Source: an uncultured Candidatus Saccharibacteria bacterium (GTDB lineage Bacteria > Patescibacteriota > Minisyncoccia > Phycocordibacterales > UBA9973). Taken from it: a stretch of 63,266 bases of DNA. Position 1 is the stretch's first letter. Every line of letters begins with the position of its first letter. Shown piece by piece: positions 2,560 through 44,755 of this stretch. The position numbers were made by a program, and so were the translations under genes. The notes beneath the pieces were generated by a model, which saw only the letters and a program-made list of their open reading frames with translations, made no database searches and was not told the origin of the DNA. The stretch lies in assembly GCA_964565825.1 (NCBI GenBank), contig CAZMGK010000005.1, forward strand, positions 1 through 63,266, given 5' to 3'.

Positions 2560-3090
2560 TTATTCCTTTTTTGTAAAAATACTATATGCTATTTTATCGA
2601 TGTCGAGTGATGATTGGTCGAGCTTGCAAGTAGTTTGTTCTGGTTCGTCGTAGTTCATACATTGAACAAATTGGAGTGTGAATGTCAGCGTACCGAGGTT
2701 GTTCCCCGTCTGAGTAACATACGTGTACGTTTTGTATGTACTTCCCGCAGCACCTTCGCTTGTCACCGTGACACAGTATTTTTTACCAGAAATTATTTTT
2801 TCTGTCATTTGTCCTCTTTGAGTAATTTCAGTCCCTGTTGGTGTACAACTAAATAGTCCAGTATCAAGCTTGACCATTGGTGGCCAATCCTTATCTACAA
2901 ACCGAACATGGTTTGTTTTGAGTGCAGTGTTATAATAAAGTGCTTCAGCTGGGGGCAATGGAACATGCGCCGGAAACAGTGCTGGTTGGACGGGTTGAAG
3001 ATTTTTCTTCATGTAGAACATGAAGCCAAGCACAAAAATAACAATAACAATCCATACAATATTCACTCGAAGATAAATAGGTTTGTTCAT
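2560..3090 (-). CDS. Hypothetical membrane-anchored protein (176 aa)
   Basis: One N-terminal TM helix (VWIVIVIFVLGFMFY). The start ATG is fused to element copy 1. Confidence 0.6.
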   Translation of the reverse strand: MNKPIYLRVNIVWIVIVIFVLGFMFYMKKNLQPVQPALFPAHVPLPPAEALYYNTALKTNHVRFVDKDWPPMVKLDTGLFSCTPTGTEITQRGQMTEKIISGKKYCVTVTSEGAAGSTYKTYTYVTQTGNNLGTLTFTLQFVQCMNYDEPEQTTCKLDQSSLDIDKIAYSIFTKKE

Positions 3091-3212
3091 CCCGTTAGAA
3101 ATAAGAAATCAAAGATTTCTGTACTTAATTAACATAATAATAGACCTGCATCCTACTCTTTTTATATAATTAAATCACATTAGTAACACGTTTGATTTCT
3201 AACGGGATTCAT
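3086..3212 (-). repeat. Start-codon-abutting inverted-repeat element, copy 1 (core 3091..3206)
   Basis: cccgttagaaat...atttctaacggg terminal inverted repeat, ttcat on both flanks and a subterminal hairpin at 3104..3120. The left end abuts the ATG of 2560..3090. Confidence 0.85.
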
Positions 3213-5050: not shown

Positions 5051-5085
5051 ACATACAGTATACCACATAAACACACCTGTAAGAA

Positions 5086-5328
5086 TCAGCTCGCAATCAA
5101 ATCTAATTTTTGCGCTCGAGTCATTTTTTTTATTCGGGCTTCTTCTTTTGACGCGAGTGAACGGTCTTTAAATTTTTTTGAATAGACAAGCACTACAGGT
5201 CTACGAGCATGCGTATACTTGGCACCGAGATTGGTACTATTGTGCTCTACGACTCTTCGGTCTACATCTGTCGTGATGCCGGCATAGAGCGTCTTATCTT
5301 TACACTTGAGAATATATACGTAGTACAT
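5086..5328 (-). CDS. GIY-YIG nuclease superfamily protein
   Basis: [30 protein letters not shown] is the GIY-YIG signature. Confidence 0.8.
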   Translation of the reverse strand: MYYVYILKCKDKTLYAGITTDVDRRVVEHNSTNLGAKYTHARRPVVLVYSKKFKDRSLASKEEARIKKMTRAQKLDLIAS

Positions 5329-7769: not shown

Positions 7770-10700
7770 TTAAATTAAACTCTTAATATTATTTACTATT
7801 AGCTCTTTGTTTTCATCATTCTCTATCCACTCTGAGTATCCAATTCTAAAGAATGTCCAACCAGCACTTTCAAGAACTCGTTGTCTCTGTATATCACTCT
7901 CAACGTAAATACCGTACGCCTCGTCTATGTGATCTTTAAAGTGAGTTGGTCCGTCGCACTCAAGAGCTAATTGTTTACCAGTGTTTAAGTTAGTAGCAAC
8001 AAAGTCAATTTTAAAGCCACAACTCTCTACTTGGTTTTGAATAGTGTATCCTTTGCCTAATTTCTTCTTTAGTAGATGATAAAACTCTTCTTCAAAATAA
8101 CTGTCAAACTTCTTCAGCGTAAGTTTTGAGGCTGAGACCTCTCCATTATCTCTGACGTACTCTAGATATTTTTTGATCCAAATACCAGAAGGAACTTTCT
8201 CAATAGGCAAACTCAAAATACAGTGTACTTGTAGTTTTGCACGAGAGAAGGCAACGTTTACTCTACCAGCATTAACATCAGCTCGTATATCACCAGTTTC
8301 TCCAGTCAGAGGGCTGTACTGTTTTTTCTGTGAAGGGTCTCTCATCACGAAAGAATATATTATGATATCTTTCTCATCTCCTTGTATACCTTCAATTACT
8401 GCAATTTTTAACTTATCGCTTTCTTTTATCCTATTATCTTCAAAGACCTTTCTAATTAGTTCTGCTTGATCGTTAAAGAAAGTTAGGACACCAAAAGTCT
8501 TGCCTTCATACTTTGGATCATCAACCATTTCTTGATATAGCTTTAGAGCTTTAAGAGCCTCAGCGTAATTAGTATTATCACTCACTTCTCCTACACCAGT
8601 ATTTTCAATATTATGAATAACCATTATACGGTTAGTATCTTGGTAGGTTAGGTATTTATTGTTTAAAGCTATGAGGCGTTTACCTTTTGGCTCGTAGAAA
8701 TATTTATTACTAAAACCTATAAGTTCCATTGGAGAACGGTAGTGATATTGAAGTATCTTAGGTATTCCAAATCTAGTTTTTGCTATATCTAGGACAGACT
8801 GCACAGCCGTGCCAGTAGGTTTGATCTGTAGACTTTCTGGCACTTTGTAGCGACTAGCAAGCTGGTCAAAGGCTTGGTTTGATTTAAACATTACAGTGCT
8901 GTCTCTCATCTGTTCTGGGTCGCCCACAAAGATAGCTTTCTTAGCTCTATACATTGAAGGGATCGTGTAGGCGATATTACACTGAGACGCCTCGTCAAAG
9001 ACGACATAGTCAAACAAGTTAGCCACTAGAGGTATGAGGCGACTAGCGTCATCTAGATCCATAATCCAAACAGGTACTATATTTAGTATAGTTTCAAAGT
9101 TTGTAGGATCGTTTTTTAACTTATCAAAAGTTTTAAAGGCTTTCTTTGATTTTTTAAATGCTCGCTGTAGCTCTTGAAGTTTTCTATAGATTTTTACCTG
9201 TGATACATTTTTCTTTATGTTATCTTCAATGATGGCAGATAGATACTGAGAGATGATTTCCTTTCTGGTAATTTGATTTTTACCGGTTACTTCTTTCTTG
9301 AGTTTAGATATCTCACTGACTAAGTTAGTTTGATTGTGGTTTAAAGTAATTCGTTCTGACAGTTTCTCTAGTAACTCTGTTACTGTGAGAGATTTATTTT
9401 TCAGAAAACTAAATAGATCAGCTATGTTATCTTTTGAAAGCTCTAAGTTCGTCTCTATTTCTACAAGTAGGTTTTCCAGCTTTTCGTTTTCAATAACTGC
9501 TTCCCAATAGGTACAAAATCCCAGAAGTTCCTCTAATTCTTTAGTCGCATTATGCCTAGAAATATTTTTAGATAGAACATTGTTTATTTCGTCGTATATT
9601 TCTTTGGGTAACTTATTTAGTTGTGATTTAAGTCGCAATTTTCTACTAAGATTATTTATATATCTTCCTAGATTAAAAGACCTATCAAAGCCGGTTTTTC
9701 TAACATCAACAAGGACTGTTTTGATTAATTCTGAAAAAGCACAATCTGAAAAAAGCTTTTTGTCTAATGAATATTTTTTTGATATAGTTTCTAATTCTTT
9801 TATGAGCTTATTGTTTAAAACTATGTTTTCTTGTGTCTTCAAATATGATGTGTGCAGATCATCAGTAAGGTTTGTTAGTATATTTTCTTCTTTTATCTCT
9901 GGTAACTCTCCCAGAAAAGCGTAGTCATTTTTCTTCTGCTCAAGCTCATACACACTTCGTTCTAGAGAAATAGCCTTATCTCTTTTTGAAAAACTATCAT
10001 CAGTATTTTGAGTAAAGTCATTTAGGTTTGTATTATCTTTTGCAATCCCTTTATGAGCACCGTATTTATCCAATGAGGCTAACTGAGAAGATATTGTATC
10101 AGCCTCTTCGTCGGTTGTTTGCTCAAACTTTACGCTAGGAACGTACCCAAATAATAAAGGGACTTCTAGAGTTTTCAGTTTATCTTTTACTACACGTAGA
10201 GCTTGAGGTTTTTGACTTACGAAGAGTACCTTGTGTTTATTAACAGCTAAGTGCGAGATTATATTTGAGATAGTCTCTGATTTTCCTGTGCCCGGAGGTC
10301 CTTGTATTATTGAGGCTTTGTTACCCAAAAGAGAAGTCGTGGCTCGTTGGAACTTGTCATACGGAAATGGGAAATAAAGAGTTTTTTCTTCGCAAACATC
10401 AGAGTTTACGTTTAGTCCATCCTCAGAAAACCAACCAGATAATGACGTGCCTTCTAGTAACTCTTCTTTTCCCCTTGAGAGCTTTGTAAGGTCTTCAACT
10501 AGAAAAAAGTTTGCTCGTGGGGCTAGTGTCAATCTTAGGTCTTCAAGAGTAAATGAGCCCTCATTAAATGTTGCGTCAGTCAGTTTCAGTTTTGCTTTAA
10601 GTACGTGCCATAGATCTACAAATATTTGCTCAGAAGAAATAGGTATTGAAAACCCTCCCTCGCTTTCTAGTTTTACGTAATCATTCAAAAACTCGTAAAC

Positions 10701-11285
10701 CAAGTCTTCTTTTTTGTAAGTTCTAAATATTTCGTACAAAGGAGGTAGGTTTAAGCGAACTTCAAAATCAATCGGCACTATGGAGTATCTGTCTATATTA
10801 TTTTTGTCCTTTTCCTTTTCAATTCTAACTGGTAGGGAAAATAAATAAAATTGTTTTGATACTAGTTTTGCCACTTCTTTTTCTTCAACAGTTTCTTTGG
10901 TATCTATGCCTTCCTCTGTTTCAACTATTGGCTCTTCTAGTACCTCAAAATCAAAACGACCAAAACGTAGTATGGTCTCTTTTGTAAAAGTGTCATTTTT
11001 AGCTTTGCTGTACACTTCATCTATCTGTAAAGCAAGAGCTTTTTCTGTTTTGTATTGATCAGATATTTCCTCAGTAACATCTTTAGGGTCTGTGTTGTAA
11101 TAACACTCAAGATTAACAATCTCGCTTAAAGTACCGTCCGTGTCTCCGTTAATAAGGCTTGGTAGAGATAAATATTTTTGTGGTAGTTTAACGTCTATTG
11201 AAGTACCTCTATTAAACCCAGTCGGTTTTGTAAGACTGAGATATCCCAAACAATATTTAATATATGAATTAAGTGAAAAGTTCAT
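7770..11285 (-). CDS. Upf1/DNA2-like SF1 helicase fused to a C-terminal DUF559/Vsr-like PD-(D/E)xK nuclease domain (1171 aa)
   Basis: Motif I GPPGTGKSETI, motif II DEASQC, QYHYRSP, and VNVAFSRAK. The C-terminus reads KIDFVATN..LALECDGPTHF...QRQRVLESAGWTFFRI. Confidence 0.8.
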   Translation of the reverse strand: MNFSLNSYIKYCLGYLSLTKPTGFNRGTSIDVKLPQKYLSLPSLINGDTDGTLSEIVNLECYYNTDPKDVTEEISDQYKTEKALALQIDEVYSKAKNDTFTKETILRFGRFDFEVLEEPIVETEEGIDTKETVEEKEVAKLVSKQFYLFSLPVRIEKEKDKNNIDRYSIVPIDFEVRLNLPPLYEIFRTYKKEDLVYEFLNDYVKLESEGGFSIPISSEQIFVDLWHVLKAKLKLTDATFNEGSFTLEDLRLTLAPRANFFLVEDLTKLSRGKEELLEGTSLSGWFSEDGLNVNSDVCEEKTLYFPFPYDKFQRATTSLLGNKASIIQGPPGTGKSETISNIISHLAVNKHKVLFVSQKPQALRVVKDKLKTLEVPLLFGYVPSVKFEQTTDEEADTISSQLASLDKYGAHKGIAKDNTNLNDFTQNTDDSFSKRDKAISLERSVYELEQKKNDYAFLGELPEIKEENILTNLTDDLHTSYLKTQENIVLNNKLIKELETISKKYSLDKKLFSDCAFSELIKTVLVDVRKTGFDRSFNLGRYINNLSRKLRLKSQLNKLPKEIYDEINNVLSKNISRHNATKELEELLGFCTYWEAVIENEKLENLLVEIETNLELSKDNIADLFSFLKNKSLTVTELLEKLSERITLNHNQTNLVSEISKLKKEVTGKNQITRKEIISQYLSAIIEDNIKKNVSQVKIYRKLQELQRAFKKSKKAFKTFDKLKNDPTNFETILNIVPVWIMDLDDASRLIPLVANLFDYVVFDEASQCNIAYTIPSMYRAKKAIFVGDPEQMRDSTVMFKSNQAFDQLASRYKVPESLQIKPTGTAVQSVLDIAKTRFGIPKILQYHYRSPMELIGFSNKYFYEPKGKRLIALNNKYLTYQDTNRIMVIHNIENTGVGEVSDNTNYAEALKALKLYQEMVDDPKYEGKTFGVLTFFNDQAELIRKVFEDNRIKESDKLKIAVIEGIQGDEKDIIIYSFVMRDPSQKKQYSPLTGETGDIRADVNAGRVNVAFSRAKLQVHCILSLPIEKVPSGIWIKKYLEYVRDNGEVSASKLTLKKFDSYFEEEFYHLLKKKLGKGYTIQNQVESCGFKIDFVATNLNTGKQLALECDGPTHFKDHIDEAYGIYVESDIQRQRVLESAGWTFFRIGYSEWIENDENKELIVNNIKSLI

Positions 11286-15607: not shown

Positions 15608-16636
15608 TTACACAAAAACTGGTTCTGGTTCGATATGAACACCAAATTTCTCAAACACTTCTTTTTGCATATATCCTATGAGCTCGGTGAGCTCTTTTTT
15701 TGTCGCTCCACCATTGTTTACCAACACAAGAGCATTTTTGTCATAAATGGAAAGATGTCCGAATTGCTTACCTTTCAAACCAAGTGTATCAATGAGCCAG
15801 CCAGCACCGATTTTAGACTTACCATCACCGACATCATGTATCACAGCATTTGGATACGCTTCTTTAATTTTTTCTGCAACACTTGTCTCTACAATTGGGT
15901 TTTTGAAAAATGAACCACACGAAGCAACATCTCTAGGATCAGGAAGTTTAGCCCATCGTATTTCTGCAATTGCATTTCTGATATCCATAAGCGTTGGGTC
16001 TTGTATGTGCTTCTTTTCAAAATATTCTTTCACTCCGGGATAGTTTGGAATCTCTGGTTTTTCGTCGCCCAATTTTTTAAGTTTAAATGTCACCGCTAAA
16101 ATAATATAGCGGTTTTTTTGTTTCTTAAAGATAGAATCACGATATGAAAAATCACAGTCACTTTTTTGCAGTACGACTTCAGTATTCTCTTGTGTGTCAT
16201 AACACGCAACTTGCACAATAGTCGTTGCAACTTCTCCTCCATAGGCGCCGACATTTTGGACCGGTGTTCCACCTACACTTCCAGGGATAGCTGAGAGCAT
16301 TTCAAGACCAGAGAAATTGTGTTCGATAGTATACAACACAAAATCATCCCATGAAACTCCAGCACTGACATTGAGCACAACAGATTCAGTATCTTCAGAC
16401 TCGGTCCAGATACCTGTATTTACTATTTTTATTACCACTCTATTTAAGGTGCCGTTATCAGGAAAAATGACATTTGAACCACCACCGAGAATGATGTATG
16501 GGAGGTTACGCGCGCGAGCGAATGCGAGCGCGCTTGGGATATCCTTTGAGTTGTCTATGGTGATTAAATACGCCACAATACCACCCATATTAAATGTGGT
16601 ACGGCCTTTGATATCAACATGTTCCTCTATGATCAT
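15608..16636 (-). CDS. murB: UDP-N-acetylenolpyruvoylglucosamine reductase
   Basis: FAD-binding N-terminus (TTFNMGG...ILGGGSN), a MurB C-terminal domain and typical length. Confidence 0.9.
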   Translation of the reverse strand: MIIEEHVDIKGRTTFNMGGIVAYLITIDNSKDIPSALAFARARNLPYIILGGGSNVIFPDNGTLNRVVIKIVNTGIWTESEDTESVVLNVSAGVSWDDFVLYTIEHNFSGLEMLSAIPGSVGGTPVQNVGAYGGEVATTIVQVACYDTQENTEVVLQKSDCDFSYRDSIFKKQKNRYIILAVTFKLKKLGDEKPEIPNYPGVKEYFEKKHIQDPTLMDIRNAIAEIRWAKLPDPRDVASCGSFFKNPIVETSVAEKIKEAYPNAVIHDVGDGKSKIGAGWLIDTLGLKGKQFGHLSIYDKNALVLVNNGGATKKELTELIGYMQKEVFEKFGVHIEPEPVFV

Positions 16637-16672
16637 ATTGCAAGTATAGCATATATGCTATATACTCTACAA
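16637..16672. promoter_or_regulatory. Back-to-back divergent -10 boxes for murB and HTH-murA with an 18-nt palindrome
   Basis: Minus strand: TGCTATACT (16643..16651) + 6 nt + ATG at 16636. Plus strand: TATACT (16661..16666) + 6 nt + ATG at 16673. The palindrome tatagcatatatgctata spans 16645..16662. Confidence 0.6.
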
Positions 16673-18208
16673 ATGAAAAAAATGAACAAAACAGTGAGCC
16701 CAAAAACAGACCAACGCAAAATCGGCTCTTTTATTAAAAGACTTCGTACAGAAGAAGGCTTTACACAAGCGGACTTTGCCGAGGCTCTAGGGACCACTCA
16801 GAGTGCTATTGCCCGCATGGAAACAGGCAACCAAAACATGACTCTTGAACAATTAGAAAAAATAGGAAGCATCCTCGAGCGAAATGTGATTTCCCTTTCC
16901 GAAACAACTGACCTCAAAATAACCGGCGGTCAAAAACTCAAAGGAAGTATCACAACAAATACTTCAAAAAATGGTGCGATCAACATGCTCGTGGCAACAC
17001 TCATCAATACGGGTAAAACCACACTCCACAATGTACCAAAAGTGCAAGAAGTATTTCGCTATATAGAACTCCTCGAGAGTATAGGCGTCACTATTGTATG
17101 GAAAAGTGACAGCACTCTCGAAGTAACTGTCCCTAAAAAATTGAGTATTGAAAAAATTGATGCTGTTGTCGCAAATAAAATCCGTTCATTTACCTTTCTT
17201 GGAGGACTCATTCACCATTCATCACACTTTTCATTTCCCCACTCTGGTGGATGTAAAATGGGTGCACGAACAATCGCCTCACACAAATTTGGTTTAGAAA
17301 AACTTGGAGTCGCTATTGAAACAAAAGATGCTGAGTATATTATCACTCACAAAAAACTCAAACCAAGTGACATTGTTATGTATGAATCTTCGGACACGGG
17401 AGCAATTACACTTATTATTGCTGCAGCTCGTATTGCTGGCACCACAGTCATTAAATTTGCTCCACCAAACTACCAAGTCCAAGATGTCTGCCACCTCCTC
17501 CAAAATATGGGCGTGCAAATAGATGGTATCGGCACGACGACACTCACGGTGCATGGAAAAGAAACCATCTCTGGAAATTTCACCGGGTATGTGAGTGAAG
17601 ACCCTATTGAAAGTATGTTCTTTATCGCAGCAGCAATCGTCACAGATTCAACTCTCACCGTAGAGCGTGTACCAATAGAATTTATCGAACTTGAAATGGA
17701 AAAACTTTTACAAATGGGACTCAAATTTAAAATTTCAGAACCATATCTCGGCAACAATGGTTTTATCAAACTCGTAGATATCACCGTTATGCCTTCAAAA
17801 CTCACATCAGTGTCTGAAAAAATCCACACACAACCATTTCCAGGAATCCAAAATGACAACCTTCCTTTCTTTGTGCCTATTTGTTTAAAAGCAGAAGGTA
17901 AAACACTTATTCACGACTGGACTTGGGAAAACAGAGCGATCTATTTTATGGAACTCAATCACTTGGGCGCAGGACTCACACTTCTCGATCCGCACCGAGT
18001 GCTCGTTGATGGTCCACAAAAACTCAAAGGTGCGCAGATCATCTGTCCACCAGCGCTTCGCCCATCTGCATCTATCCTCATCGCCATGCTCGGCGCCGAA
18101 GGTGTTTCAACGCTCCGCAATGTCTACTCTATCACTCGTGGATACGAAGACGTCGCAGAGCGTCTCAATAGTATTGGGGCAAAGATAGAAGTGTTAAAAG
18201 GAATTTAG
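16673..18208 (+). CDS. murA: XRE-type HTH domain fused to UDP-N-acetylglucosamine 1-carboxyvinyltransferase
   Basis: N-terminus reads IKRLRTEEGFTQADFAEALGTTQSAIARMETGNQN (HTH_XRE). MurA follows: SKNGAINMLVATL, GGCKMGAR with the Cys, and a C-terminal ITRGYEDVAERLNSIGAKIE. Confidence 0.85.
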   Translation: MKKMNKTVSPKTDQRKIGSFIKRLRTEEGFTQADFAEALGTTQSAIARMETGNQNMTLEQLEKIGSILERNVISLSETTDLKITGGQKLKGSITTNTSKNGAINMLVATLINTGKTTLHNVPKVQEVFRYIELLESIGVTIVWKSDSTLEVTVPKKLSIEKIDAVVANKIRSFTFLGGLIHHSSHFSFPHSGGCKMGARTIASHKFGLEKLGVAIETKDAEYIITHKKLKPSDIVMYESSDTGAITLIIAAARIAGTTVIKFAPPNYQVQDVCHLLQNMGVQIDGIGTTTLTVHGKETISGNFTGYVSEDPIESMFFIAAAIVTDSTLTVERVPIEFIELEMEKLLQMGLKFKISEPYLGNNGFIKLVDITVMPSKLTSVSEKIHTQPFPGIQNDNLPFFVPICLKAEGKTLIHDWTWENRAIYFMELNHLGAGLTLLDPHRVLVDGPQKLKGAQIICPPALRPSASILIAMLGAEGVSTLRNVYSITRGYEDVAERLNSIGAKIEVLKGI

Positions 18209-33558: not shown

Positions 33559-33740
33559 TACTCTAATTGATGCACTTCATTGAGACGTGATTCGTATAGT
33601 GCTGTTGTTTTATTAATACTCTCAGTCAAATTTTTGATGTACCACATGAGAATTAGTGAAAATACAACAAACATTATTTTATAGTATTTTCCAACGTAGA
33701 GTGAAAAAAAATCAACGTTATTATGCATGTTCTTCCTCAT
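33558..33740 (-). CDS. Small TM + coiled-coil protein (60 aa; FtsL/DivIC-like topology)
   Basis: One TM helix (IMFVVFSLILMWY) followed by a short helical tail. It overlaps the scpB stop and the murE start. Confidence 0.35.
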   Translation of the reverse strand: MRKNMHNNVDFFSLYVGKYYKIMFVVFSLILMWYIKNLTESINKTTALYESRLNEVHQLE

Positions 33741-34269
33741 TTACTTGAGAAAAAACAGTCTCAAGATTTTTAATCGTCTCTTCGTATGCAGGGAGCTCGC
33801 TTATTTGGGTGATGCCTAAATACCGAAGTGTGTCTATCGTTGGTACATAGATGTATGAACGACTATCTTTTTTATTTTCTTTTTTCTCAACAAGTCCTCG
33901 GAGATACAAATTTCTGAGAATGAATGAGGAATTGACTCCACGAACATAATCTACTTCACTCCTTGTTGCACCATTTTTGTACAATAAGATAGAAAGTGTC
34001 TCGAGACTTGCTTTTGAGAGCTCTCCACCGCGTTCTTCTTTTTCGACTGTTTCGAGGAATTCAGAAACAGCCGGGTTCGTTCCTAGCGCAAGTTCACCAT
34101 CTGATTCTACAATAACAATACCGGTGTCATCCGTGTACTGCATCCTAAGAGACTCAATAATAGCAACAAGCTCTTCTTCTGAAATATCGAGCTGTTCCCT
34201 AATGTATTTTTTTGACAGACTCTCCCCTTTTATAAATAAGAGCGCTTCGACAAGATTTTTTTTATTCAT
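33721..34269 (-). CDS. scpB: Segregation and condensation protein B
   Basis: VEALLFIKGESLS...LETLSILLYKNGATRSEVDYVRG. It follows scpA. Confidence 0.88.
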   Translation of the reverse strand: MNKKNLVEALLFIKGESLSKKYIREQLDISEEELVAIIESLRMQYTDDTGIVIVESDGELALGTNPAVSEFLETVEKEERGGELSKASLETLSILLYKNGATRSEVDYVRGVNSSFILRNLYLRGLVEKKENKKDSRSYIYVPTIDTLRYLGITQISELPAYEETIKNLETVFSQVNEEEHA

Positions 34270-34391
34270 CCCGTTAGAAATAAGAAATCGAAGATTTCTG
34301 TACTTGATTAATATTAAAATAGACCTGTATCATAATTCTTTTATTTTCTCATTATCTCTTAATAAACTGTTTGATTTCTAACGGGATTCAT
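34265..34391 (-). repeat. Start-codon-abutting inverted-repeat element, copy 2 (core 34270..34385), between scpA and scpB
   Basis: Same termini as copy 1, ttcat flanks and a hairpin at 34283..34299. It abuts the scpB ATG and contains the scpA stop codon (34378..34380). Confidence 0.85.
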
Positions 34392-35157
34392 ATCCTTCTA
34401 CGTTAACAGTACTTTTAGTAACATTCATATCCCCGAATGCACTTTCTTGGTCGGCTACCAATATACCTGTTCTAATAAGTTCGAGAATGGCAAGGAAGGA
34501 AATGAGGGTAAACACTTTTTCTTCTTTCGTGAATATTTTTTTTGACCCCGTAAATTCATTGAAGGAAAATGAAGAGAGCGATTCGACTTGTTTGTGGATA
34601 CGGTCCATCACTTGTTCTAAGGTAATCGTCGTACGTACTTTAATTTCAGGATTATTTTCGACAGTCTCTATCTGGGGAGCTTTTTTCATCACATCTTGTA
34701 TGCACTCATACAAATATGCTGTCGTTATGTGTGTGTCTGGAATAAATCTAACCTCTCTCTTTTGTTCTTTTTTGAGAAAAATAATATCTGTGTCAAAACG
34801 TTCGGCTATTTGCTTCGCAATATCTTTGTATATCTTGTAGACTTTGAGTCGTTCTTCAAGGTCGTCAATCGTGACTTTGTCTTCTTTCGTTATATCAAAG
34901 TTTGGAAGGAGTGAGCGAGATTTTATAAGGAGGAGTGTGGCAAGAATGACAAGATATCCAGTCAGTTCGTAGAAGTCTTTTGACTGACGTTCTTTCATTT
35001 CAGTTACATATGAGGTATATTCTTCAGCAATCGACGAGAGTGATATTTCATTGATGAATAATTTTTTACTCTCAATCAGAGACAACAGCAAATCAAGCGG
35101 TCCTTCGAACGTTGTTGCTTTCGTGATGAAACTAGGTGTGTCCTGTACTGTATCCAT
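34378..35157 (-). CDS. scpA: Segregation and condensation protein A
   Basis: FEGPLDLLLSLIESKKLFINEISLSSIAEEY. The last codons and the TAG stop lie within element copy 2. Confidence 0.88.
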   Translation of the reverse strand: MDTVQDTPSFITKATTFEGPLDLLLSLIESKKLFINEISLSSIAEEYTSYVTEMKERQSKDFYELTGYLVILATLLLIKSRSLLPNFDITKEDKVTIDDLEERLKVYKIYKDIAKQIAERFDTDIIFLKKEQKREVRFIPDTHITTAYLYECIQDVMKKAPQIETVENNPEIKVRTTITLEQVMDRIHKQVESLSSFSFNEFTGSKKIFTKEEKVFTLISFLAILELIRTGILVADQESAFGDMNVTKSTVNVEGYESR

Positions 35158-37238: not shown

Positions 37239-38246
37239 TTAGAAGTAGTTAATTTTCATTTTCTCTCTGATAATGTGCATATTTTCTTCAGCGACTGTTT
37301 GTGCCGCTTTGATTCCCTCTTTCAAAATTTCATCAACTAGTTTCGGATTGTTTTCATAGTACGCTCGTTTTTCTCGAATAGGCGCAAGCATACTGTCGAG
37401 TACTTCAATGAGTCTTTTTTTAATGACAACATCTCCGAGTCCACCTTTTTTGTAGTGTTTTTTGAGTTCTTCAACTTCTTCTTTGTTCGGGTCAAAAATA
37501 TCGAGATAGGTAAAAACAACATTTCCTTTTACTTCACCAGGGTCTGCTACATGAATATGATTTGGATCAGTATACATCTGCATTACTTTTTTTGAAATTG
37601 TTTCGCGAGTATCTGCGAGATTGATCGTATTACCGAGAGATTTGGACATTTTTGCACCACCGTCGAGACCGGGAAGGCGTACAGTATCACTGAGTACTGC
37701 TTTTGCGTGTTCAAATGTATGGCCATAAAATCTATTGAACGTATCAACAATTTCATTTGTTTGCTCTATTTGTGGTAACTGATCTTGACCAACCGGGATA
37801 CTATTTGCATGACAAAATAAAATATCAGCAGCTTGTGAAACTGGATACATAAGAAATCCAGCTGGAACTGTCTCGCTATATCCTTTCTGTTTCATTTCTG
37901 CTTTGACTGTTGGATTTCTTTTAAGTCGTGCAACGGTAACAAGGTTGAGAAAAAAAACAGTGAGTTCGGCAATTTGTGGAATCATTGATTGAATAAAGAA
38001 AGTTGTTTTCTTTGGATCTACTCCGCAAGCAAGATTGTCGAGGACGACTTCACGGACGTTGTCGCGAACTTTCTCTGGATTGTCGGCATTATCTGTGAAT
38101 GCTTGAACATCAGCAACCATGTAAAATGCTTGGTCAGCTGTGTCTTGCAATTTCAATCTATTCTGTATAGAGCCGACATAGTGCCCCAAATGGAGCTTGC
38201 CTGTTGGTCTGTCACCGGTTAAAACGATGTGTTTTTTGTCTTTCAT
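37239..38246 (-). CDS. trpS: Tryptophan--tRNA ligase
   Basis: TGDRPTGKLHLGHYVG (HIGH region) and KMSKSLGN. 335 aa. Confidence 0.93.
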   Translation of the reverse strand: MKDKKHIVLTGDRPTGKLHLGHYVGSIQNRLKLQDTADQAFYMVADVQAFTDNADNPEKVRDNVREVVLDNLACGVDPKKTTFFIQSMIPQIAELTVFFLNLVTVARLKRNPTVKAEMKQKGYSETVPAGFLMYPVSQAADILFCHANSIPVGQDQLPQIEQTNEIVDTFNRFYGHTFEHAKAVLSDTVRLPGLDGGAKMSKSLGNTINLADTRETISKKVMQMYTDPNHIHVADPGEVKGNVVFTYLDIFDPNKEEVEELKKHYKKGGLGDVVIKKRLIEVLDSMLAPIREKRAYYENNPKLVDEILKEGIKAAQTVAEENMHIIREKMKINYF

Positions 38247-38370
38247 CCCGTTAGAAGTAGGAAATCAGAGATTTCCATCCTATATTATTGTTTGATTAAT
38301 AAAATTAAATTTCCTTCAATATTTTACCCGTCCGTAAAGAGTAAATCGTCCGACTTCTAACGGGATTCAT
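38242..38370 (-). repeat. Start-codon-abutting inverted-repeat element, copy 3 (core 38247..38364), upstream of trpS
   Basis: cccgttagaagt...acttctaacggg termini, ttcat flanks and a hairpin ggaaatc-aga-gatttcc at 38260..38276. It abuts the trpS ATG. Confidence 0.85.
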
Positions 38371-43840: not shown

Positions 43841-43880
43841 GAGTGACACACTTTCTGCGATAGCAGAAAGTGTGTCACTC
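43841..43880 (+). terminator. 18-bp hairpin terminator after cysS
   Basis: gagtgacacactttctgc-gata-gcagaaagtgtgtcactc followed by tcctttttc. Confidence 0.75.
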
Positions 43881-43944: not shown

Positions 43945-44631
43945 TTAATAAACGATCGATTCTTTAACACTACAGTGTTCCGCAACCCAGGCTGTATCGA
44001 ATTCAGAGAGCTCGTGGCGAGTCTCTTCGTAAATATAATATGATTTATTAACAGGTTCGCATGGTGTGGTGACGCAGACAATCGGCATCTTGTCAGTAAT
44101 TTTTTCAGTCGGACAAGCTTGGATGGAACCATCAAAGTAAGCTCTGCAGTACGGTGGATTCACAGTACTCATACAGGCCATCATCGTGCAGGCCATCATT
44201 CCTTTAGGTGATGTACGACTACAGCTATTACATCCATCGTACCAGTTTTGACAGTTCGCTGGTGGTGTATTTGGATCAGGAGGTACAGTGCTAGTACAAA
44301 ATTGTGAACGGAGAACACCTCTAGTCATTGGACCCACAAAACCAGTTGTCGAGATGTCTTGATTGAGCTGGTATGCGCGTGCGGATTTCAATGTGATCCA
44401 CCCAAAATACCCAGTTGGAGCAACATGAAAGTACCCAGCAGTCTTTAGTGCTTCTTGTAATTCTAAAACTTTTGCCCCTTTTCCATTATGATACCCGTCT
44501 CCAAAACGGAGGTTTTGAGTAAATTTAAAACAACCAACCCGAGCATCATTTGCTGTATTCTCTGCATTGGCTGTTAAGAGTGTGGTCATACAAAATATGA
44601 CCATTATAAATAAACTGAATGTCTTTTTCAT
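43945..44631 (-). CDS. Secreted peptidoglycan-binding-domain protein with a Cys-rich C-terminal region
   Basis: Signal peptide, a PG_binding_1-like segment GAKVLELQEALKTAGYF...GYFGWITLKSARAYQ, and a C-terminal half with 14 Cys. Confidence 0.7.
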   Translation of the reverse strand: MKKTFSLFIMVIFCMTTLLTANAENTANDARVGCFKFTQNLRFGDGYHNGKGAKVLELQEALKTAGYFHVAPTGYFGWITLKSARAYQLNQDISTTGFVGPMTRGVLRSQFCTSTVPPDPNTPPANCQNWYDGCNSCSRTSPKGMMACTMMACMSTVNPPYCRAYFDGSIQACPTEKITDKMPIVCVTTPCEPVNKSYYIYEETRHELSEFDTAWVAEHCSVKESIVY

Positions 44632-44755
44632 CCCGTTAGAAGTAGGAAGTCCGAAGACTTCCGTCCTTAATTAGCTAATAATAAAATAATCCGATCACGG
44701 TGTAATTTGTACCCGTTACTTAGTAATAAAACGTCTGACTTCTAACGGGATTCAT
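44627..44755 (-). repeat. Start-codon-abutting inverted-repeat element, copy 4 (core 44632..44749)
   Basis: cccgttagaagt...acttctaacggg termini, ttcat flanks and a hairpin ggaagtc-cgaa-gacttcc at 44645..44662. It abuts the ATG of 43945..44631. Confidence 0.85.

Follow-up and report, generated by a model that had tools for sequence, protein, structure and literature searches.

In the 63,266-nucleotide DNA stretch from an uncultured Candidatus Saccharibacteria bacterium analyzed here (contig CAZMGK010000005.1 of assembly GCA_964565825.1, positions 1 to 63,266 of the forward strand; hereafter the window), four copies of an inverted-repeat element of about 120 base pairs each adjoin the start codon of a different gene. 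All four are members of a large family of non-coding, non-autonomous elements resembling MITEs (miniature inverted-repeat transposable elements), with inverted ends of 11-14 bp (Y-CCCGTTAGAA-RY...) and a 4-bp target-site duplication (TSD). In the candidate phyla radiation (CPR, Patescibacteria) the copies are found almost only in one register, in which a 4-mer beginning with TG and the terminal purine of the element together make up the in-frame ATG or GTG of an intact gene. What is new is that the terminal base of this CPR-wide MITE family restores the start codon of the gene that receives the insertion. The explanation that best accounts for all observations together, and that we regard as probable, is that of a non-autonomous MITE family which survives almost only where the element's R followed by TG rebuilds a start codon, and whose transcript would then be trimmed by a ribonuclease (RNase).

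The cores of the four elements lie at 3091-3206, 34270-34385, 38247-38364 and 44632-44749 and are 116, 116, 118 and 118 nt long, respectively; with their terminal T..A the full elements measure 118-120 bp (Table 1). Every one of the four cores is bounded by the exact arms CCCGTTAGAA and TTCTAACGGG. When up to one mismatch is allowed, the arm 10-mer occurs 9 times in the window (8 times exactly) where 2.7 occurrences are expected, and none of 100 shuffled sequences reached 9. The four copies have a single orientation in common and each adjoins, with zero spacing, the ATG of a minus-strand open reading frame (ORF), of 176 aa, 182 aa (ScpB), 335 aa (TrpS) and 228 aa (PG_binding_1), respectively. 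Each of the four, read in the gene sense, has the order tATGAAT-[core]-ATGAA. A preliminary description made from the sequence alone had reported the four cores and their arms, their contact with the ATG of four different minus-strand genes in one orientation and this mRNA-sense layout, and all of these points were confirmed. The 176-aa ORF at 2560..3090, which it had called a membrane protein, has no Pfam match. The interiors of the window copies are 56-78% identical in pairwise comparisons. In all, 4 of the 66 window genes (~6%), trpS and scpB among them, carry a hairpin of about 120 nt with the start codon at its foot. The scpA ORF (34378..35157) now stops at a TAG (34378-34380) lying within the gene-sense 5' arm of copy 2.

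Table 1 Elements of the window with their duplications and sub-terminal hairpins. Positions are those of the window; sequences are given in the gene sense where stated.
Feature	Positions	Strand	Remarks
Element copy 1	3090..3207	-	118 bp including terminal T..A; gene-sense 3'-terminal A (3090) serves as first base of the ATG of ORF 2560..3090 (176 aa)
Copy 1 gene-proximal target duplication	3086..3089	-	TGAA in gene sense; nucleotides 2-5 of the ORF
Copy 1 distal duplication	3208..3212	-	TGAA (3208-3211) plus original A of the old start codon (3212), the left-over ATGAA
Copy 1 sub-terminal hairpin P3	3104..3120	-	AGAAATC/GATTTCT; one U between P3 and closing helix, gene sense
Element copy 2	34269..34386	-	118 bp; adjoins ATG of scpB (33721..34269)
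Copy 2 gene-proximal TGAA duplication	34265..34268	-	
Copy 2 distal duplication	34387..34391	-	TGAA (34387-34390) plus original A (34391)
Copy 2 hairpin P3	34283..34299	-	
Element copy 3	38246..38365	-	120 bp; adjoins ATG of trpS (37239..38246); orthologous site empty in three relatives
Copy 3 gene-proximal TGAA duplication	38242..38245	-	
Copy 3 distal duplication	38366..38370	-	TGAA (38366-38369) plus original A (38370)
Copy 3 hairpin P3	38260..38276	-	GGAAATC/GATTTCC
Element copy 4	44631..44750	-	120 bp; adjoins ATG of PG_binding_1 protein gene (43945..44631); site empty in relative L120
Copy 4 gene-proximal TGAA duplication	44627..44630	-	
Copy 4 distal duplication	44751..44755	-	TGAA (44751-44754) plus original A (44755)
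Copy 4 hairpin P3	44645..44662	-	GGAAGTC-UUCG-GACUUCC in gene sense; both stem strands changed, in a compensatory way, relative to copy 3

By its TrpS relatives the window is close to Paceibacterota/Nomurabacteria-like metagenome-assembled genomes (MAGs) within the Patescibacteria; a look-up of the identical protein found no record of the window's TrpS. We compared the trpS loci of three relatives, whose TrpS proteins are 93% (L120, the closest), 90% (L122) and 81% (L123) identical to that of the window. The dnaB-trpS spacer is uninterrupted in all three and the site reads tatATGAAAGA, the trpS start having the form tataat-N11-ATGAAAGA without an element. The trpS start reads ...catggtataataattctcgtatATGAAAGAT in L120 and ...catggtataataatcttcgtatATGAA[T-core-A]TGAAAGAC in the window, where the native promoter-like TGGTATAAT precedes the distal duplication of copy 3 and ends 11 nt upstream of the old ATG. 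Similarly, the start of the PG-binding gene is empty in L120 (...atacatatATGAAAAAGAT) and occupied in the window (...ctataagtATGAA[T-core-A]TGAAAAAGAC). The preliminary description had proposed a search for orthologous empty sites, and this succeeded for trpS in three relatives and for the PG-binding gene in L120 but not cleanly for scpB, whose start lies two codons further upstream in the relative; once the element and one TGAA are deleted in silico from the window, scpA nevertheless regains a stop overlapping the start of scpB (..TAT GAA TAA). In L120 (TrpS 93% identical) the 21 kb around trpS, for the most part syntenic with the window, contain zero copies, against 4 in the 63 kb of the window. 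By these alignments the window elements are insertions with target duplication, which the empty sites in close relatives prove, and they arrived after the split from the relatives with 93% identical TrpS. A non-coding element with inverted ends and a 4-bp duplication that was inserted in the window lineage and is absent from relatives is a MITE-like transposon.

The comparison also sets the limits of the element, which is Y-CCCGTTAGAA...TTCTAACGGG-R, that is, with one extra base at each end (T...A in the window, C...G in other members). The target duplication is 4 nt long (TGAA in the gene sense, TTCA on the plus strand) and not the TTCAT initially proposed, as both the empty sites and the C..G members indicate. 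In the latter the upstream copy is still ATG and the gene now opens with GTG (e.g. tATGAAC-core-GTGAAA), which fixes the boundary at a 4-nt TSD and Y...R element ends. The last purine of the element is thus the first base of the start codon, and since the terminal pair is always T..A or C..G the codon formed anew is either ATG or GTG. After insertion the former start codon lies about 120 nt upstream, cut off from its gene.

We scanned a set of 185,579 species-representative genomes for both arms lying 85-115 nt apart and matched at least 119 loci, mostly in Patescibacteria. The family statistics given below refer to the matches listed from this arm-pair scan, from which 136 copies were classed. 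The CPR hosts belong to Saccharibacteria, many Parcubacteria/Paceibacteria lineages, Levyibacteriota, Berkelbacteria, Kazan, Kerfeldbacteria, Moranbacteria and others, and so to most CPR classes, and a minority of hosts to Omnitrophota, deltaproteobacterial lineages, Planctomycetota, Nitrospirae and Bdellovibrionales. A viral contig collection yielded 2 matches only and the plasmid and phage collections scanned yielded none. The constant length of 116-118 nt pointed out earlier holds in the window but is partly genome-specific, as cores in the wider family measure 105-134 nt, which is the full range allowed by the search pattern, and loci retrieved on account of other copies also contain versions of 24-100 nt. 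All 85 offset-0 copies followed by an ORF of at least 60 aa have a complementary terminal pair (T..A in 65, C..G in 20), offset 0 meaning an ATG or GTG with a long ORF directly after the element. In these start-associated copies the TSD is perfect in 59 of 85 and always begins with TG (TGAA 51, TGGA 11, TGAG 11, others 12). At the inverted ends 11 terminal base pairs are invariant or covary and a further 2 covary, and arm variants among extra copies in fetched loci show compensatory double changes (CACG/CGTG, CCCGC/GCGGG and at position 10). Closely related elements of one genome have different flanking 4-mers (TGGA, TGTA and TGAA at L003, L109 and L024). The family thus shares these features with MITEs: short non-coding sequence, inverted ends, a TSD checked against empty sites, and dispersed copies with presence/absence differences.

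We then classed all copies by their offset from the nearest start. Among the 98 CPR copies 71 are at offset 0, none at offset 1 and 8 at offset 2, the last carrying TATG or CATG duplications, and 19 have no ORF start within 0-3 nt; 79 of the 98 (81%) therefore adjoin a start codon. The 18 copies from unnamed MAGs are distributed similarly (14 at offset 0, none at offsets 1 or 2, 4 without a start). In contrast, 16 of the 20 non-CPR copies have no start, with 3 at offset 0, 1 at offset 1 and none at offset 2, and they mostly sit at GTAAAC sites, both junctions reading that 6-mer. A distribution mostly away from starts and in both orientations, which the preliminary description had named as evidence against a link with start codons, is consequently not what is found in the CPR (79/98 at starts) but is found outside it (4/20 at starts). 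The 19 CPR copies off start codons have other duplications (e.g. TTTA, TAGC, TTCG, TATA, TTGA) and in no case TGAA, which ties placement to the start codon as such and not to the pentamer. Read from these junctions, TGAA is the reflection of ATG plus a common second codon rather than a target motif of the mobilising enzyme, whose own preference looks like a loose T-N-N-A.

For the expected frequencies we counted candidate sites in the window reconstructed to its pre-insertion state. ATGAA is found at 17 gene starts, at 23 intergenic positions and at 206 positions inside coding sequences (CDS); TGAA is found at 83 intergenic positions and at 763 inside CDS (start-codon sites included), the gene starts being the 17 of the ATGAA count. 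The placement of 4/4 window copies at starts then has P = 0.03 under an ATGAA model and P = 0.0008 under a TGAA model. From the same site counts the expected share at start codons is 42% if ATGAA is the target and 22% if it is ATG, and the 79/98 observed in the CPR has a binomial P of <1e-14 (ATGAA model) and <1e-34 (ATG-only model). Orientation relative to the gene is also strongly biased: of the copies with an asymmetric C-T-R-Y motif by an arm, 46 have it at the gene end and 6 at the other end (46:6, P = 1e-8). Of the initial suggestion that a MITE is kept only where it regenerates a start codon, the insertion, the target duplication and the position of 81% of CPR copies at starts stand, whereas the duplication is shorter than thought and it is the element's own purine that completes the codon.

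Individual copies show further arrangements. In a Kerfeldbacteria MAG (L014, 7674-7895) two different family members lie in tandem with one shared ATGAA between a Shine-Dalgarno (SD)-ATG start (GGAGGAGAACTTATT-ATG) and the gene body, so that about 240 nt separate the native ribosome-binding site from the coding sequence. In a Bdellovibrionales MAG (L083, 5058-5165) both arms flank a complete tRNA-Ala(CGC) gene (5074-5147), so that either the element carries the tRNA as cargo or a helix of the processing type encloses the tRNA. Copies in two Saccharibacteria MAGs (L081, 5440-5554; L019, 2119-2235) appear from the reading frames to split genes, deletion of the element and one duplication restoring one long ORF (149+788 and 146+230 codons); an ATG 5 nt away from the element reopens the downstream part in L081. 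Mini-hairpins of 24-31 nt, made of the arms and a 4-11 nt loop (L042, 6015-6041; L068, 2990-3013; L116, 2661-2687; L117, 2546-2576), are often nested in or beside full-size copies, mostly in non-CPR phyla and with GTAAAC flanks. Finally, two Parcubacteria species (L057, 6564-6677; L099, 6918-7030) have alignable type-A elements (see below; ~65% identical) that share a TGGA duplication and precede homologous genes (49% protein identity), and the alignment is compatible either with an ancient retained insertion or with repeated insertion at the same start codon.

RNA folding predicts for each window copy a 14-bp closing helix within which the A and U of the start codon are paired, with minimum free energies of -26 to -40 kcal/mol and z-scores of -3.0 to -4.8 for the four copies; the burial of these two nucleotides, suggested beforehand, was thus reproduced by the prediction. 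A 7-bp hairpin is predicted to adjoin the 3' strand of the closing helix in each copy. Across the family three architectures recur. In type A the closing helix P1 of 12-14 bp is followed by a 4-nt bulge of the 3' strand (ACCU, AUCU or UCCU) and by a 7-bp helix P2 (CGCGGWC/GWCCGCG). In 34 type-A copies picked by the 3'-side motif alone 97.5% of the cells are paired, both-side changes occur at five pairs, and the pairing score is not approached by any shuffle or slid register. Type B, to which the window copies belong, consists of P1, one U and a local hairpin P3, of which 20 of 21 copies retain all six outer pairs by an anchored count despite differing stems (GGAAAT, GGAAGT, GGAAGC, GAGAAT, GGTCGT, GGTTGC and others). 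Type C is marked by C..G ends together with the motifs GTCCTnGGCAGAAAAAA (5') and CTATATAAAGACAGAC (3'). Covariation of the arms, as seen in the alignments, fits either RNA pairing or one protein needing both ends alike; covariation in P2 and P3 shows that the folded single strand, RNA or DNA, matters. Rfam at gathering thresholds returned tRNAs only for the window and 18 loci, and at E <= 10 gave only chance snoRNA and miRNA matches for one copy. A decoy pairing in which an interior AACGGG sequesters the 5' arm was too weak to be retained (6/85 copies against ~2 expected).

The genes behind 72 start-codon copies match 98 different Pfam families. They include topoisomerase I (topA), several aminoacyl-tRNA synthetases, SecD/F, PGK, TIM, FtsW, FtsK, DnaJ, LytB and PilB/PilC of the type IV pilus. 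The variety of these genes, many of which are normally essential, indicates that the element is compatible with their expression and has no gene specificity. SD motifs are essentially absent from the window genes, many of which have a TATAAT-like box 6-8 nt before the ATG (e.g. 21160, 46719, 57269, 60673, 16636), and this suggests that leaderless or near-leaderless mRNAs are widespread in the source genome. In the fetched loci a strong -10 box lies 5-11 nt from the old ATG in 37% of element-bearing genes and 19% of controls, and an SD-like motif is found upstream of 6% and 12%, respectively. The genome had been described beforehand as SD-poor and prone to leaderless messages, correctly according to both counts. 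Mycobacterial work reportedly found a 5'-terminal AUG or GUG to be sufficient for leaderless translation. A precedent is Deinococcus deserti, in which many mRNAs begin exactly at AUG or GUG (PMC4007540).

The upstream ATG is lost in ~15/85 copies, in which the gene-side junction is still exact, indicating that this ATG is not needed. Reading frames opening at the old ATG end at scattered stops, mostly within the element, which has stops in all frames. Coupling through an upstream ORF (uORF) was rejected as a general mechanism because only 13 of ~60 uORFs end within 10 nt of the gene start and ~15/85 copies are without the old ATG. An internal outward promoter was likewise rejected for the family as a whole: -10-like hexamers show no positional peak when gene and opposite strands are compared, and a promoter scan finds no more sites than in shuffled sequences. 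A TATAAA situated 17 nt from the GTG in the type-C subfamily may be an exception of local extent.

For expression we propose the following model. The element would form a 5' leader of the message made from the promoter of the gene itself, and the 14-bp closing helix would bury the start codon. A host endoribonuclease would then trim the hairpin at or near ...CGGG/RUG and leave a leaderless or near-leaderless mRNA. Candidate enzymes would be RNase III, acting on the 20-22 bp stacked helix P1+P2 or P1+P3, or an RNase of the Y/E type cutting after the invariant GGG. As the predicted helix hides the start codon, expression most likely depends on such trimming, and a requirement for RUG at offset 0 (sometimes 2) is expected if the 5' part is cut away and the message becomes leaderless or near-leaderless. 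RNase trimming is what we favour, as a hypothesis only. In a more far-reaching version, which we put forward tentatively and think rather less likely than not to hold, the element is a mobile 'start-codon cassette' which remains harmless or is even useful since its terminal helix serves as a processing signal, so that an RNase cut at ...CGGG/RUG makes any gene that receives it leaderless, or the helix is removed or bypassed and the signals of the original start are used again.

A cis-acting translational or RNA-processing module, the second suggestion of the preliminary description, may also be at work, and it is the most interesting possibility since the predicted helix hides the start codons of normally essential genes. 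Burial of the start codon could instead be the purpose of the element. According to this explanation the hairpin is an exapted cis-regulatory RNA kept to mask the start codon and tune or conditionally control translation, as a thermometer, a helicase or protein switch or a protein site, and the element a mobile regulatory module and not a parasite that is put up with. The buried A and U with a strongly negative predicted folding energy, the strong orientation bias, the conservation of internal helices and of the 4-nt WCCU bulge with compensatory changes that extend to the arms, and the L057/L099 pair, whose alignable elements, common TGGA and 49% identical genes suggest long retention, all speak for it. 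Against it stand the lack of a common function among the genes (98 Pfam families), close relatives in which the same genes do without an element, highly variable interiors, one of them with a tRNA inside, and the lack of any Rfam match; moreover a pure pairing role does not require a 10-bp arm that is invariant across phyla. We hold this explanation to be rather unlikely.

The placement itself is governed by position and not by sequence and is exact to the nucleotide and the frame, which suggests to us that it is mainly a product of selection. Under the MITE reading that we prefer, insertion would occur with only a weak sequence preference (roughly TNNA) and the start-codon pattern would be made by filtering: in compact, SD-poor, largely leaderless genomes an insertion near a start would be tolerated only with RUG at its foot. 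Copies in dispensable DNA would be lost faster by deletion, and a copy welded to an essential start codon could not be lost imprecisely. The main rival to filtering is that the enzyme actively chooses start codons or transcription start regions, for instance a promoter open complex or the melted +1 to +5 DNA of leaderless genes. Such targeting would account for a start enrichment far above any sequence-motif expectation, for -10 boxes at leaderless distance being about twice as common in element-bearing genes as in controls, for a TSD that spans +2 to +5 of leaderless transcripts, and for all four young window insertions being at starts. Yet the window -10 boxes lie 8-11 nt from the ATG, so that the transcription start would miss the A of ATG while the register is exact; scpB is operon-internal, the L014 and L092 copies follow SD-ATG starts, and same-arm copies in non-CPR phyla are not at starts. 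An enzyme acting on DNA also has no obvious means to read the frame, and we consider active targeting unlikely.

The element could also be silent in expression, being excised from the mRNA by cuts at both feet of the helix with religation within UGAA, or skipped by ribosomes that hop from the old AUGAA to the downstream one; in both cases the signals of the old start would again yield the unaltered gene product. Silent inserts have precedents in splicing (IStrons) and in ribosomal bypass (T4 gene 60, mitochondrial byp elements). The identical AUGAA at both sides of a compact helix, native promoters and SD sequences correctly spaced only for the upstream copy, and the tolerance of tandem elements before one gene (L014) would suit this possibility. 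We nevertheless give it very little credence: the gene-side junction is intact in the ~15/85 copies without an upstream ATG, C..G members have GTG downstream against ATG upstream, the variable interiors contain no ribozyme-like conserved core and have no Rfam match even at E <= 10, and uORFs from the old ATG end at scattered positions. Slightly less credible still is integration by a site-specific recombinase through a short common core in the style of phage att sites or integron cassettes, with the flanking 4-6 nt repeat as crossover core, since the reading of GTAAAC at both junctions of non-CPR copies and of RTGAAY at both junctions of many CPR copies, and the likeness of GTTAGAA and TTCTAAC to the integron core sites GTTRRRY / RYYYAAC, are set against a box order that is the reverse of attC (GTT...AAC here, AAC...GTT in attC), related elements of one genome with different flanking 4-mers (L003, L109, L024) and no adjacent integrase.

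Besides targeting, several observations weigh against filtered MITEs with trimmed transcripts. No transposase or autonomous partner was found in the window (Pfam on 20 ORFs), no recurrent transposase beside 23 non-CPR or unnamed-taxon loci (Pfam, 92 ORFs), and, when unpaired or distant arms were sought in ~950 kb of fetched DNA, no element of greater length with these ends, pattern searches spanning up to 600 bp. An interior identity of only 56-78% among four copies of the same genome is unusual for a recent burst; it argues against a burst from a single master and fits old cut-and-paste lineages or import by recombination. Filtering must also explain why intergenic sites are under-used (83 intergenic TGAA against 17 at gene starts). 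As for trimming, the proposed cut site is base-paired in the predicted structure and a cut by RNase III would be expected to leave several leader nucleotides. A few copies are in the opposite orientation or follow an SD-ATG, the tandem pair in L014 included. Finally, the compensatory changes within the arms are explained no less well by selection on pairing than by selection on binding of a transposase.

Like bacterial MITEs, the elements are non-coding, ~120 bp long, dispersed and polymorphic, with perfect inverted ends, a short TSD and nested, tandem and miniature derivatives. They differ in that ~80% of CPR copies are in one start-codon register and one orientation, with the codon completed by the element's last base. 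To our knowledge no MITE family has such a start-codon-completing register, and we found no published description of the present family in the literature searched by arm sequence and topic. Correia/NEMIS elements of Neisseria and ERIC/IRU elements of enterobacteria are co-transcribed MITEs that form a long RNA hairpin, which is cut by RNase III (Correia) or alters decay by RNase E (ERIC), with a change of expression as the result. By analogy they would be the nearest functional counterparts and provide the model that we favour for the tolerance of the present elements. Both groups are nevertheless unrelated in sequence to the present family and have no tie to start codons; Correia elements have a TA duplication, lie at variable distances from genes without start-codon fusion and are confined to one genus, whereas the present family spans a superphylum. 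Rickettsia palindromic elements (RPE) are palindromic mobile elements that persist in the gene space of a reduced genome in a way compatible with gene function. RPE, likewise unrelated in sequence and not linked to start codons, are inserted in frame and translated, whereas in the present elements every frame opened by the old ATG meets a stop and their position is immediately outside the ORF.

As for possible mobilising systems, the IS1380 family (e.g. ISEcp1) has inverted repeats starting with CC and duplications of 4-5 bp, which would fit the Y-CCCG ends and the 4-bp TSD. We offer this as a lead and not as an assignment; no IS1380-type transposase or matching inverted repeat was seen in the fetched DNA, in which no search aimed at IS1380 was made. 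PATEs and IStrons of the IS200/IS605 group are likewise small structured mobile elements positioned at a short motif, IStrons being silent by splicing. An IS200/IS605-derived PATE was rejected because such elements lack inverted ends and TSD, both of which are present here, and because the flanking 4-mers vary where a PATE is inserted 3' of a fixed tetra- or pentanucleotide; there is also no group I intron core and no Rfam match. Integron attC sites have the reverse box order (RYYYAAC...GTTRRRY, against ..GTTAGAA...TTCTAAC.. here) and lie 3' of a cassette ORF near an integron integrase, and the present elements are 5' of housekeeping genes with no integrase in the window. REP/BIME sequences are imperfect palindromes of 20-40 nt, occur mostly at gene 3' ends and are associated with RAYT transposases, unlike these elements of ~120 bp with a TSD 5' of genes, and no RAYT-like (Y1/HUH) gene was present in the ORFs scanned. 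The mini-hairpins of non-CPR loci resemble REPs in form only.

The window has other features of interest. At 2224-2511, two tandem tRNA-like segments of ~70 nt (2230-2299 and 2331-2400), 101 nt apart and 89% identical, lie just upstream of tRNA-Glu(CTC) (2437-2511), whose 5' part they share; their anticodon-loop sequence differs (CTGAAGAAG vs CTTCTCAAG) and neither is called a tRNA by ARAGORN or Rfam. A perfect 28-nt inverted repeat with a 2-nt spacer (2500-2557) overlaps the 3' end of tRNA-Glu, abuts the stop of the ORF 2560..3090 and probably terminates transcription in both directions. Of the terminator-like sites in the region scanned, the strongest is a perfect 18-bp hairpin (GAGTGACACACTTTCTGC..) followed by a T-rich tract between cysS and the PG-binding gene (43841-43880). 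The minus-strand gene at 7770-11285 encodes a 1171-aa protein with superfamily-1 helicase domains (AAA_11/AAA_12) and, at the C-terminus, a restriction-endonuclease-like domain (MTES_1575/DUF559), and may be a nuclease-helicase of defence or repair. The product of 16619-18208 is MurA (EPSP_synthase fold) with an N-terminal HTH_3 (XRE-type) domain; this is an unusual fusion, or the ORF start may instead have been called too far upstream.

In uncultivated Patescibacteria, where well over a hundred species are concerned, genes for topoisomerase I, aminoacyl-tRNA synthetase, SecDF, FtsW and glycolysis have such a hairpin at their start codons. The elements bear on genome annotation, as they shift or mislead start-codon calls, alter the ends of neighbouring genes (scpA) and split long ORFs in two of the fetched loci. 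They also provide a clear case of a transposon distribution set by a single-nucleotide constraint, the terminal purine plus TG making the start codon. Translation initiation in Patescibacteria, which have few SD sequences and many promoters of the leaderless type, is essentially unstudied, and the element amounts to a natural repeated experiment on the 5' configurations that their ribosomes or RNases handle, with a concrete target for RNA 5'-end mapping in cultivable Saccharibacteria. If the start-codon cassette proved true, it would be the first bacterial transposon that persists by rebuilding and re-exposing a start codon, and would reveal a CPR-wide peculiarity of initiation.

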